Virus record (IMG/VR): IMGVR_UViG_3300020044_002979
Span: 1-24,331 of that record
DNA: 24,331 nucleotides
From: a virus
Taxonomy: Duplodnaviria > Caudoviricetes
Direction: 5' to 3' (one strand)
Part shown: in pieces, positions 2,750-6,902 of the stretch
How the letters are laid out: every line of letters starts with the position of its first letter
How positions within the stretch are numbered: position 1 is the stretch's first letter
Translations under genes and position numbers: made by a program
Notes under the pieces: generated by a model
The model's database searches: none
Told to the model about the DNA's origin: nothing
Seen by the model: only the letters and a program-made list of their open reading frames with translations

Positions 2750-3084
2750 TTTTTCACCTTTGAAATCAACTCAGCAATCCGCTTTTTGTTCGCTGCCATT
2801 TGTTCTGCTGTAAGTTTGTTTTCCAACATAACGACTGGCTTGTCTGGTGCTTTACGACACATTGCTCTGAACTCCAAGACAGTTGGCGGTTTGATTCCTT
2901 CAGGCATATTCTTCAAAGCGTAAGCAATCGAGTCTGCGTGATCCCTGAAGCCAGCCAGCTCATGCGCCCAATCAGCTTTCACTTCGTCAATGTTTAAGCC
3001 TTCCCAACGACCCAAGAACTCACGGCCATAGATCATGGTCAGCTTTGTGAAGATTCGATCAACCCAAGGCATTGGCAAGCTCAT
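2746..3084 (-). CDS. Replication protein, lambda P-like helicase loader candidate
   Basis: Immediately downstream of the initiator. VDRIF..L...YG..F..RW...W..EL and PPTVLEFRAMCR motifs. Confidence 0.6.
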   Translation of the reverse strand: MSLPMPWVDRIFTKLTMIYGREFLGRWEGLNIDEVKADWAHELAGFRDHADSIAYALKNMPEGIKPPTVLEFRAMCRKAPDKPVVMLENKLTAEQMAANKKRIAELISKVKK

Positions 3085-3863
3085 TTTTTGTCTCCAATGA
3101 GTTGAACCGTAGATTCCATGTCTATCGTTCTAAAGAAGTCAGCAGCGTCCTGGTAAGGCTCTGGAGCTTGTTTGGCAATAGAAGGTACAGCCTCTTGCAT
3201 CTTCAAGCGCATTGATCGTTGGTAAACAGTCTCAGACTGCTGTTGCTTTTCAGCTATCCATTCAGCCTTCAATCCTTGGCTTCCACGAGTACACCACTCA
3301 ACAAGAAACTTCTCCAATGGCCAATCAAGTTTGAAAGCCTCTTTTCTTGCACCTTCAATGACTGTTTGAGTGACAGCAGCCTTCTTGCTTTTCCTGAGCG
3401 ACAACCAATCAGACCAAACCTGTTCTGAAACATCAAGTGGGCAAGCAACGACAGTTGCCTTCTTTTTGTGTTCTGTGTCTTGTGTTATGTGTACTGTGTT
3501 ATGTGTAGCATTGCCTTCGGATTGCGTTGGCAATGCGTTCGCATCCTTTTGCTTTGACCAACGAGCCTTTGCACTTTCACTAGCCTTTTGTGATTTGTCA
3601 CCAGCTTTTGCCAATTCTTTGTTAGCTCTGTGATGAATCCATCCATCCGCTGTACGCTCGAAATACTCTCGCAATACAACTGCAATGCAATCGCTATGCG
3701 AACGCATCCTTATTTGTCTTGCAACCTCTATTTCATCAAGAGGAATTGGACTTTCATGAAGATAGTACCAATCAAGCAAACGCCGATAAGTAAGGTCTTC
3801 CATCTCTGAAAGATGCTCAGTATGGCTTTTGTAATCGCCAATGTTGAACTGGTAATAGTGCAT
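3081..3863 (-). CDS. DUF1376/YdaU-family replication initiator (O-like)
   Basis: N-terminal MHYYQFNIGDY...HLS..EDL.YRRLLD.YY..E.P, a low-complexity repeat linker, and C-terminal W.DW...RK.KKA. GGAG RBS 6 nt before ATG 3863. Confidence 0.85.
   Translation of the reverse strand: MHYYQFNIGDYKSHTEHLSEMEDLTYRRLLDWYYLHESPIPLDEIEVARQIRMRSHSDCIAVVLREYFERTADGWIHHRANKELAKAGDKSQKASESAKARWSKQKDANALPTQSEGNATHNTVHITQDTEHKKKATVVACPLDVSEQVWSDWLSLRKSKKAAVTQTVIEGARKEAFKLDWPLEKFLVEWCTRGSQGLKAEWIAEKQQQSETVYQRSMRLKMQEAVPSIAKQAPEPYQDAADFFRTIDMESTVQLIGDKK
3467..3709. repeat. Iteron-like repeats inside the initiator gene (putative origin)
   Basis: Six tandem 7-mers TGTGTNN (3467-3508). Two arrays of three degenerate 11-mers, each ending in GCATCC (3508-3546 and 3671-3709). 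Confidence 0.65.
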
Positions 3864-3873
3864 GAGGCACTCC

Positions 3874-3982
3874 AAAAGAAAAAACCCTTGAAAGCTGGTG
3901 GGTCAAGCACCAGACCTTCAAGGGTCAGCCTATGACGGCTTAGATGTATTAGCGTCTTGACCACGCCACATCTAAACCGTCT
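3874..3982 (-). ncRNA. Structured 5' leader: two hairpins with complementary loops, the second being an intrinsic terminator
   Basis: Hairpins at 3934-3981 and 3884-3925, loops GGUCAAG and CUUGACC, a U-tract at 3884-3874, and G-U pairs that work only on the - strand. Confidence 0.75.
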
Positions 3983-3988
3983 GAGCAA

Positions 3989-4017
3989 ATCATATCACTT
4001 CTTTGGCGGTTTTCCAA
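3989..4017 (-). promoter_or_regulatory. Sigma70-type promoter for the replication leader
   Basis: TTGGAA (4017-4012), 17 nt, TATGAT (3994-3989) with extended TGn. The predicted +1 near 3982 coincides with the start of hairpin 1. Confidence 0.65.
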
Positions 4018-4219
4018 AGTATTGCTTAGTGCCGTTGTTGTTGTCTTTACGCAACACTGTCCACAGGTGCTCACGTTCAAGACGAGCCAGCTTACTGTGA
4101 GGGCTGGTTGTCGGAAGGTATCGTGCTATCTCCGCTGCTGTCGCTCCCTCTTTGCGGGACAGGATCAGCTTCAATCGAGCCATTTGGCCCACTGGTTTCT
4201 TTTGGAACAGATTTATCAT
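3995..4219 (-). CDS. Small winged helix-turn-helix DNA-binding protein
   Basis: LKLILSRKEGATAAEIARYL...HSKLARLERE helix pattern followed by a beta wing (TVLRK...TKQYF). Confidence 0.6.
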   Translation of the reverse strand: MINLFQKKPVGQMARLKLILSRKEGATAAEIARYLPTTSPHSKLARLEREHLWTVLRKDNNNGTKQYFGKPPKK

Positions 4220-6250: not shown

Positions 6251-6631
6251 ATGAACAACATCTCTATCGCTGGTCAACTTGGAAAAGACGCTGAAGTGCG
6301 TTTTATGCCTAATGGTGATCCAGTCTCTAACTTCTCGATTGCTGACAGCCAAGGCAAGAACAAAGACACAATCTGGTGGAACTGCCAGTTGTTTGGTAAA
6401 CGAGCCGAGTCTCTTGCTCCTTACCTGGTCAAAGGTCAATCACTGACTATCTCTGGCATTGTTGTTCAGCGCAAATATACCGACAAGCAAGGTCAAGAAA
6501 AAATTGCAACCAATGTCAATGTAAACGAAATTGCATTGCAAGGTGGTCGCAAAGATTCTGGACAAGGACAGCCAGCAAAGAAGCCTGAAGCAAGTGTCTT
6601 TGACGGCATGGACGACGACATCCCTTTTTGA
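6251..6631 (+). CDS. ssb: Single-stranded DNA-binding protein
   Basis: IAGQLGKDAEVRF..NGDPV.NFSIA OB fold and an acidic DDDIPF tail. TAAGGA RBS before ATG 6251. Confidence 0.95.
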   Translation: MNNISIAGQLGKDAEVRFMPNGDPVSNFSIADSQGKNKDTIWWNCQLFGKRAESLAPYLVKGQSLTISGIVVQRKYTDKQGQEKIATNVNVNEIALQGGRKDSGQGQPAKKPEASVFDGMDDDIPF

Positions 6632-6636
6632 TTTTC

Positions 6637-6722
6637 GGGCCGAAAGCGGATGCTGTGATCCCGTAGGCCGAGCGGTTGCCCCGTTCTTCCGTTAGCCGGA
6701 AACAGACGCAGAGAGTAGGCCC
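6637..6722 (+). ncRNA. Candidate structured RNA (multibranch, loop-E/sarcin-ricin-type internal loop)
   Basis: GC-rich intergenic island with nested stems GGGCC/GGCCC, GCG/CGC and CUGU/ACAG, plus two inner hairpins. GAA opposes AGUA. Confidence 0.55.
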
Positions 6723-6740
6723 AACTTTTAAGGAAATGAA

Positions 6741-6890
6741 ATGCAATACTTTATCGGATTAGCTTGCTTTTTCGCATGGCTTACACACGTTTTCACTTGC
6801 TTTGCACAAGGTCTTTGGGGCTTTCTCGTTGCAGGTGCTCTTTTATTTCCTCTTGGAATTCTTCATGGTTTTTATCTCTGGTTTAAATAA
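6741..6890 (+). CDS. Small membrane protein, 49 aa (MQYFIGLACFFAWLTHV...LHGFYLWFK)
   Basis: Read manually. TAAGGA RBS and an almost entirely hydrophobic sequence. Confidence 0.8.
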   Translation: MQYFIGLACFFAWLTHVFTCFAQGLWGFLVAGALLFPLGILHGFYLWFK

Positions 6891-6902
6891 AGGAACTGAT
6901 TG

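Follow-up and report, generated by a model that had tools for sequence, protein, structure and literature searches.

What keeps the replication initiator of a small phage in check when no CI-type repressor is in sight? This question is raised by a leader that precedes a DUF1376 gene in the window, by which we mean the whole 24,331-nt stretch of DNA analysed here, a linear virus record that is 72% complete. The recombination genes of the window lie on one strand, and the initiator, RusA and nin-like genes lie on the other. The DUF1376 gene product is predicted from its sequence matches to be a replication initiator or primosomal protein, and its gene is the one that the leader would gate (Table 1).

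Table 1. Positions in the window of the leader elements and of the two adjoining genes
Feature	Position	Strand	Remarks
73-aa gene upstream of the cassette	3995..4216	-	3' end overlaps the promoter
-35-like hexamer TTGGAA	4012..4017	-	weak; TTG at the same spacing in only 35/83 homologues
Extended -10 box TGnTATGAT	3989..3997	-	hexamer TATGAT at 3994-3989; TG extension in 44/83 homologues
Hairpin 1	3934..3981	-	14-bp lower stem, 3-nt bulge (3950-3948), 5-bp upper stem, 7-nt loop
Loop 1 GGUCAAG	3956..3962	-	5' partner of the kissing helix
Linker AUAGGCUG, 8 nt	3926..3933	-	GGC at 3930-3928 invariant (85/85 homologues)
Hairpin 2	3884..3925	-	17 bp; predicted intrinsic terminator hairpin
Loop 2 CUUGACC	3901..3907	-	exact complement of loop 1
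U-tract	3874..3883	-	adjoins hairpin 2; at least 7 T in 8 nt in 85/85 homologues
Shine-Dalgarno GGAG	3870..3873	-	SD-like motif in 82/85 homologues
DUF1376 gene	3081..3863	-	260 aa; PF07120, E 3e-20; PHROG primosomal protein and initiation O-like

Anatomy of the two-hairpin leader

The original prediction had described two hairpins separated by an 8-nt linker, with 7-nt loops that are perfect reverse complements of each other, set between a promoter and the ribosome-binding site of the DUF1376 gene. All coordinates of the hairpins, linker and loops were verified on the minus strand, as were the promoter (TTGGAA-17-TATGAT, with the TG of its extension supplied by the upstream TGA stop codon) and the order of U-tract, GGAG and ATG (3863-3861). 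The fold of the element has a z-score of -5.5, and none of 200 shuffles was equally stable. The transcribed strand folded better than the opposite strand for both hairpin 1 (-26.9 vs -18.8 kcal/mol) and hairpin 2 (-25.5 vs -23.1 kcal/mol). Across 85 homologues, hairpin 2 averaged -24 kcal/mol and had a GC base and an abutting U-tract in every case. Furthermore, the geometry of the element is tight, with a loop-to-loop distance of 52-57 nt and a bulge of 3 or 4 nt among the homologues.

All three non-Watson-Crick pairs of the window element are G-U on the transcribed strand, which had been taken as a sign of selection at the RNA level. The homologues bear this out. Their stems contain 186 G-T against 5 A-C oppositions and the sense strand folds better in 85/85, indicating that selection acts on this strand as RNA. 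The kiss does not grow into a long duplex, as the pairs flanking the loops never permit extension into the stems (0/84). We also observed that the invariant GGC of the linker is able to pair with the GCC of the hairpin 1 base (3926-3939). The resulting hairpin would be closed by a GNRA loop in several short-linker variants, a pattern confounded by stem pairing, and in the window it is 9 kcal/mol worse than the full hairpin 1.

By itself, the TTGGAA-17-TATGAT promoter is not above chance within the window (4 found vs 6.1 expected). The -10 box lies at an equal distance from the element in 83 of the 85 homologues, whichever gene is upstream, and the transcription start is predicted at about 3982, at the base of hairpin 1. 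No -10 box is conserved inside the element among the 85 homologues, and the start codon usually follows 15-23 nt from the start of the U-tract. With a -10 box upstream, no internal promoter, a U-tract and a Shine-Dalgarno motif, the downstream gene appears to need read-through. In this layout, a transcript from the promoter runs into a terminator-like hairpin before it reaches a gene that the phage needs.

An analogy had been drawn with antisense-driven attenuation of the pT181/pIP501 type, in which a counter-transcript from the other strand would act in the manner of plasmid rep control. Hairpin 2, copied in antisense, would indeed bear the loop 1 sequence, but the opposite strand has no conserved -10 box from -30 to +200 nt (at most 7/85 homologues in any bin) and selection on the fold concerns the sense strand alone. 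We therefore consider this explanation extremely improbable and set the analogy aside.

The 73-aa gene whose end overlaps the promoter had no match in Pfam and PHROG searches. Its look-alikes in the Atlas carry HTH_39 on 12-22% of members, and its product is probably a helix-turn-helix protein, judging from these resemblances. Most of its 42 relatives lack the kissing element, and the gene is not a dedicated or fixed partner of the cassette. Elsewhere in the window, a GC-rich hairpin-like stretch lies 3' of the SSB gene (6631-6900), with a small unlisted ORF starting from near 6738.

Loop complementarity and turnover of loop codes

Conservation of the loop-loop complementarity was examined by three search routes. 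A sequence-blind scan for kissing loops covered the window and 121 loci that had been fetched via neighbouring proteins or by DNA similarity. It recovered the element once in the window and in 7 of the loci, with six different loop pairs and 1 false hit. The second route was a pattern describing hairpin 1 only, devoid of any information on the linker (including its GGC) or hairpin 2, which was run over viral and metagenome collections (55/64 parts of the latter). In the viral collection, 62 of 64 unique matches folded, and an exact 7-nt complement of the loop was found 20-45 nt downstream in 60 of these 62, both misses being contig ends. Among 95 unique metagenomic matches, 47 folded and 44 of them had the exact complement; of the three others, one was truncated, one was not an element and one (L747) had a true single mismatch. 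By comparison, a downstream complement followed none of the 50 non-folding matches. Finally, patterns built on the linker side retrieved 21 loci, 7 of which fold as two long hairpins, all with complementary loops. These 7 elements added four codes, one of which alters even the first loop pair. The prediction that complementarity is kept in homologues was thus confirmed, with 20 loop codes in total and variation at five of the seven loop positions.

A loose version of the hairpin 1 pattern (6/64 parts) returned mostly noise, with 4 real elements in 120 matches. In bacterial genomes (loose pattern, 5/64 parts of the collection), a profile search of 121 loci yielded no element, and the exact hairpin 1 pattern was found in 0/401 genomes of one betaproteobacterial family chosen as a host guess.

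The homologue set comprises 85 unique sequences, namely 84 with complementary loops and L747. Covariation was assessed in an alignment of 72 of them, near-duplicates having been removed by eye. The loop-loop helix was 99.8% paired, with 107 double-sided changes, no one-sided change and no G-U pair. Double-sided changes also occurred at 12 of the 19 pairs of the hairpin 1 stem and at 12 of the 14 counted pairs of the hairpin 2 stem. The two-hairpin structure scored above all 500 shuffles and all slid controls. Columns fixed by the search pattern (the G and AG of loop 1 and the GGYTTA/TAAGCC base) are uninformative in this respect. Covariation between the loops, proposed as a check on the kissing interaction, is therefore well supported.

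Loop codes can differ between very similar phages. L784 and L813 have flanks that are 97% and 100% alike, and their elements differ by four loop letters and one other letter. In 19 comparisons between sequences whose two flanks are each at least 80% alike, which are not independent of one another, the rate of change was about 3 times higher for loop pairs (19 changes at 4 pairs) than for stem pairs (36 changes at 24 pairs). On a tree, 17, 15, 3 and 18 changes were counted for the loop pairs, which falls inside the range spanned by the most variable stem pairs, and the means per pair were 7.7 for kissing pairs vs 6.7 and 8.6 for the stems. Because these tree counts are no higher than those of the most variable stem pairs, the fast turnover of loop codes is suggestive only. 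Five genomes with two copies carry two different codes each, one of these records being possibly two phages joined; the chance that two copies share one code is only 13% per genome, so that this difference is not significant. Many codes are only one letter apart (28 of 190 code pairs), and their orthogonality is thus limited.

The same data bear on a rival explanation, in which the element is a fixed-ratio attenuator acting purely in cis: kinetic competition between kiss and terminator would set a constant read-through fraction and the codes would drift neutrally. The anatomy and the covariation fit this scheme equally well, and the loop-pair counts on the tree fall inside the stem-pair range. 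However, a weak terminator would be a simpler way to the same end, four-letter code switches without wobble intermediates occur between near-identical phages, and an int-alpA-like RNA equipped with target boxes can occupy the same slot (see below). A fixed-ratio attenuator is in our judgement unlikely.

Gene context and an alternative RNA in the same slot

The sequence comparisons delineate a portable cassette consisting of a -10 box, hairpin 1, the terminator-like hairpin 2, a U-tract and a Shine-Dalgarno motif. The first gene after the cassette is an initiator in 39 of 85 cases, and an initiator lies within 700 nt in 26 more. In the remaining cases it is further off (4), none was found (12) or the contig is too short (4). 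The reference initiators match either DUF1376 or PHROG families of initiation or replication. In other cases, the first gene codes for an HNH nuclease, a methylase-helicase, an Ant-like regulator or a small unknown protein. The proposed link to replication initiators therefore holds in general (65/85 within 700 nt), but it is not specific to DUF1376, as only 2 of 80 DUF1376 relatives carry the element.

A stable RNA of about 105 nt has been another candidate for the product of the locus, cis-kissed or assembled head to tail into rings or chains and serving as a decoy or scaffold, with the initiator expressed through leakage. Such a product would fit a unit that has its own promoter, starting at the stem base, and its own terminator; the tight loop distance and bulge size agree with it as well, and the invariant stem base and linker GGC could form a binding surface. 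It accounts poorly for a start codon with a Shine-Dalgarno motif placed typically 15-23 nt on, for the position of most copies before initiators and for the fact that none of the 85 cases is a free-standing copy without a downstream gene. This possibility seems to us quite unlikely.

No CI/Cro pair had been visible in the window, and in searches of carrier genomes the complete relatives had neither a CI-type repressor nor an integrase. An S24 repressor was found in 0/27 carrier genomes. A tyrosine integrase was found in 0/17 complete genomes and in 1/27 overall, an incomplete one; among genes of a temperate lifestyle, the search covered tyrosine integrases. MW202710, the one annotated carrier, which comes from a spring, has neither S24 repressor nor integrase in its annotation. 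The copy in the single integrase-bearing genome (L668/G022) has, by eye, no -10 box.

Several individual loci deserve mention. A gene for a methylase-helicase of about 730 aa lies between two cassettes 2.3 kb apart (G006:C1:15207-17649, G007:C1:27310-29752 and G009), placed as if inserted via recombination between cassettes. A divergent copy with the code ATAAGAG precedes an Ant/Rha-like regulator (L829:12244-13055, G015), with neighbouring structural genes on the opposite strand. A conserved ORF of 38-39 aa is found directly 3' of the cassette in L613, L616, L622, L682, L723, L743, L746, L781 and L796, often between cassette and initiator; one member tested in each of Pfam and PHROG gave no match.

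Most DUF1376 relatives have another RNA in the same place. At least 66 of 80 carry an int-alpA-like RNA between the -10 box and the ribosome-binding site, followed by a U-run (L001-L080, about 100 nt upstream of the DUF1376 match, e.g. L020:2272-2346). This module is a three-way junction that matches Rfam int-alpA (RF02996), with CUA, GAAAA and CU joints; its sequence and fold are unrelated to those of the kissing element, and the window element gave no match to RF02996. The second loop of the int-alpA-like RNA is complementary to one or two boxes that lie after the U-run and before the start codon, changes in loop and boxes being matched, and in 49 of 53 unique cases it pairs better with its own boxes than with swapped ones. 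Pairing of a loop with boxes by the ribosome-binding site recalls the logic of C4 and CI RNAs, and these sequence patterns suggest that int-alpA RNAs are C4/CI-like regulators. Furthermore, the place of the second kissing module of G006 and G007 is taken in their relative G009 by an int-alpA-like module, and from such arrangements the two modules look interchangeable. An apparent tandem of cassette and int-alpA-like RNA in L688 and L856 proved on inspection to involve only a truncated int-alpA-like fragment; the one 3' of the kissing cassette in L856 (1465-1495, minus strand) may be a scar of module replacement. In L048 and L049, a third type of leader is found 130 nt upstream of the DUF1376 match, made of a long inverted repeat enclosing small hairpins.

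A candidate attenuator with trans feedback and its relation to known RNAs

By analogy with known leaders, the cassette likely acts as an attenuator. Our best explanation, to which as a whole we give about an even chance, is a ligand-free transcription attenuator with trans feedback. Loop 1 would pair with loop 2 as the latter emerges from RNA polymerase, and this kiss would keep the base of hairpin 2 from closing, allowing polymerase to read through the U-tract into the replication initiator gene. Transcripts without the kiss would end as an RNA of about 105 nt, whose fully zipped hairpin 2 would leave both loops free. As this RNA accumulates, its loop 2 could capture loop 1 of new transcripts in trans, blocking the cis kiss and favouring termination. 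Initiator would thus be made in an early burst and then shut off, with the loop code as address and no repressor protein required.

That the kiss corresponds to the read-through state appears fairly probable, based on the guanidine-IV riboswitch and on a crude rod model. In this model, ring closure was achieved in 0-5% of trials when the lower stem of hairpin 2 was fully zipped, and in 24-100% when 6-8 basal bp were open. The model uses assumed bend angles and free azimuths, and with minimum distances within reach it also permits the finished RNA to kiss in cis; mutual exclusion of the kiss and the full terminator stem is supported by it, though not proved. The earlier notion that similar stem lengths let the loops meet was thus too simple, as in this model the kiss fits well with the base of hairpin 2 open and poorly with it fully zipped. 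As described for the guanidine-IV riboswitch, an ON switch, a hairpin loop kisses the terminator loop and hinders formation of the full terminator, and the kiss is itself hindered as the terminator stem grows (PMC7736828, PMC11611296). More generally, structures just upstream of terminators are described as suppressing termination (2026 preprint, 10.64898/2026.06.17.733018).

The trans feedback by the 105-nt RNA is the weakest part of the proposal and is put forward tentatively, the evidence on this step being mixed. In its favour we counted the code switch between L784 and L813, the roughly 3-fold loop turnover, the slot shared with the int-alpA-like RNA, the precedents of P4 and Gifsy-1 (see below), and the lack of integrase (0/17 complete genomes) and S24 repressor (0/27). 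The absence of any ligand pocket in the loops makes the terminated RNA itself the most likely OFF signal. Against the best explanation, we counted that the invariant linker GGC and stem base remain outside the model and that a ligand-free 7-bp kiss could be a mere fixed dampener. In its fullest form, the proposal is a self-addressed RNA feedback switch that needs neither protein nor ligand, in which a single 100-nt leader would be antiterminator (cis kiss), terminator and diffusible repressor (trans kiss) at once, with incompatibility groups defined by the code; we consider this version less likely than not.

The closest mechanistic precedent is the guanidine-IV riboswitch (GGAM-1/mepA), in which, by its published description, the loop of an intrinsic terminator hairpin (here a predicted one) likewise finds its complement in the loop of a hairpin further upstream. 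In contrast to guanidine-IV, whose conserved loop letters bind guanidine, the element described here has a perfect 7-bp helix, 20 codes and no evident ligand. It also has longer stems, and it is found in phages before replication initiators instead of guanidine exporter genes. This topology nevertheless raises the question of a riboswitch or protein sensor, with a metabolite or protein bound to the conserved stem base and linker tuning the balance between kiss and terminator, and the GGYUU/AAGCC base and the linker GGC are indeed kept in divergent copies found without the hairpin 1 pattern. However, five of seven loop positions vary where guanidine-IV, as described, requires conserved letters, no metabolite theme unites the downstream genes, the cassette has no fixed partner gene upstream, and no Rfam riboswitch matched the element to E 10. 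We regard a sensor as improbable.

The original prediction had also invoked the put RNA of phage HK022. Like putRNA, described as a protein-free two-stem RNA that follows an early phage promoter and affects termination (PMC9378689), the element has two stem-loops right after what would be an early promoter in a lambdoid-type layout, and it could conceivably bind RNA polymerase and cause processive antitermination of the early operon. The anatomy differs and does not sustain the analogy. PutRNA is reported as V-shaped, about 70 nt long and conserved in sequence, with stems joined at one nucleotide and a triplex, binding the beta-prime zinc domain and acting processively; a variable loop code, loop-loop pairing or a terminator role for the second stem does not figure in the available description (PMC9378689). 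Here, the hairpins are separated by an 8-nt linker, the stems are variable, and in all 85 homologues the base of hairpin 2 is GC and the U-tract adjoins it. A put-like function is very improbable.

The C4 RNA of P1 and P7 is a leader-derived phage RNA that acts in trans, and is grouped with the CI RNA of P4. No match between the element and the Rfam C4 models was found at gathering score or to E 10. The likeness proposed here to P4 CI RNA with its seqA/seqC sites and to Gifsy-1 IsrK is that of a short phage-leader RNA acting in trans on its own transcript, to control replication or antirepressor genes without a protein repressor (PMC4825925). According to the same source, CI arises by processing of the leader, its pairing targets are separate boxes, and IsrK activates translation (PMC4825925), whereas both partners here are hairpin loops in one 100-nt unit, one of them the predicted terminator. 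The PeSL cassettes of T4-like phages are similarly described as portable units of promoter, stem-loop and Shine-Dalgarno motif before exchangeable genes, but with a single stem-loop upstream of the promoter (PMC4122927); here, two hairpins and a U-tract lie between promoter and ribosome-binding site, downstream of the -10 box in 83/85. By these comparisons, the element stands outside the guanidine-IV, put, PeSL, C4 and antisense-attenuator classes, with a predicted expression platform like that of guanidine-IV.

As the check proposed by the original prediction, Rfam was searched and gave no match in the window at gathering score, nor over the element to E 10. Fremin et al. 2023 list anonymous aquatic, mostly freshwater phage RNA candidates (DNAVirus_4653, 124 nt; DNAVirus_4859, 106 nt; DNAVirus_187; DNAVirus_230) located before DUF1376 or another initiator domain; each of the four bears a 'no terminator' label, and the word kissing is absent from the main text (PMC10690425). 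Compared by listed description only, the element may be one of these candidates. No description of the element was found in the literature by title or abstract beginning, in a search that covered largely non-subscription journals. The cassette is a real phage RNA, strongly conserved and absent from Rfam, and it is apparently undescribed.

Even without the trans step, these results define a strongly supported RNA family absent from Rfam. In small lambdoid-type phages that have no CI repressor or integrase, the cassette is an RNA-only candidate for limiting the initiator. The principle of a kiss that blocks a terminator, known from one class of riboswitch, would thereby be extended to a ligand-free form that has at least 20 codes in nature. 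Should the self-addressed switch be true, a phage with neither integrase nor repressor could count its own genomes or block co-infecting kin of the same code. The trans step, if true, would represent a new kind of phage incompatibility and provide a ready set of addressable transcription switches.
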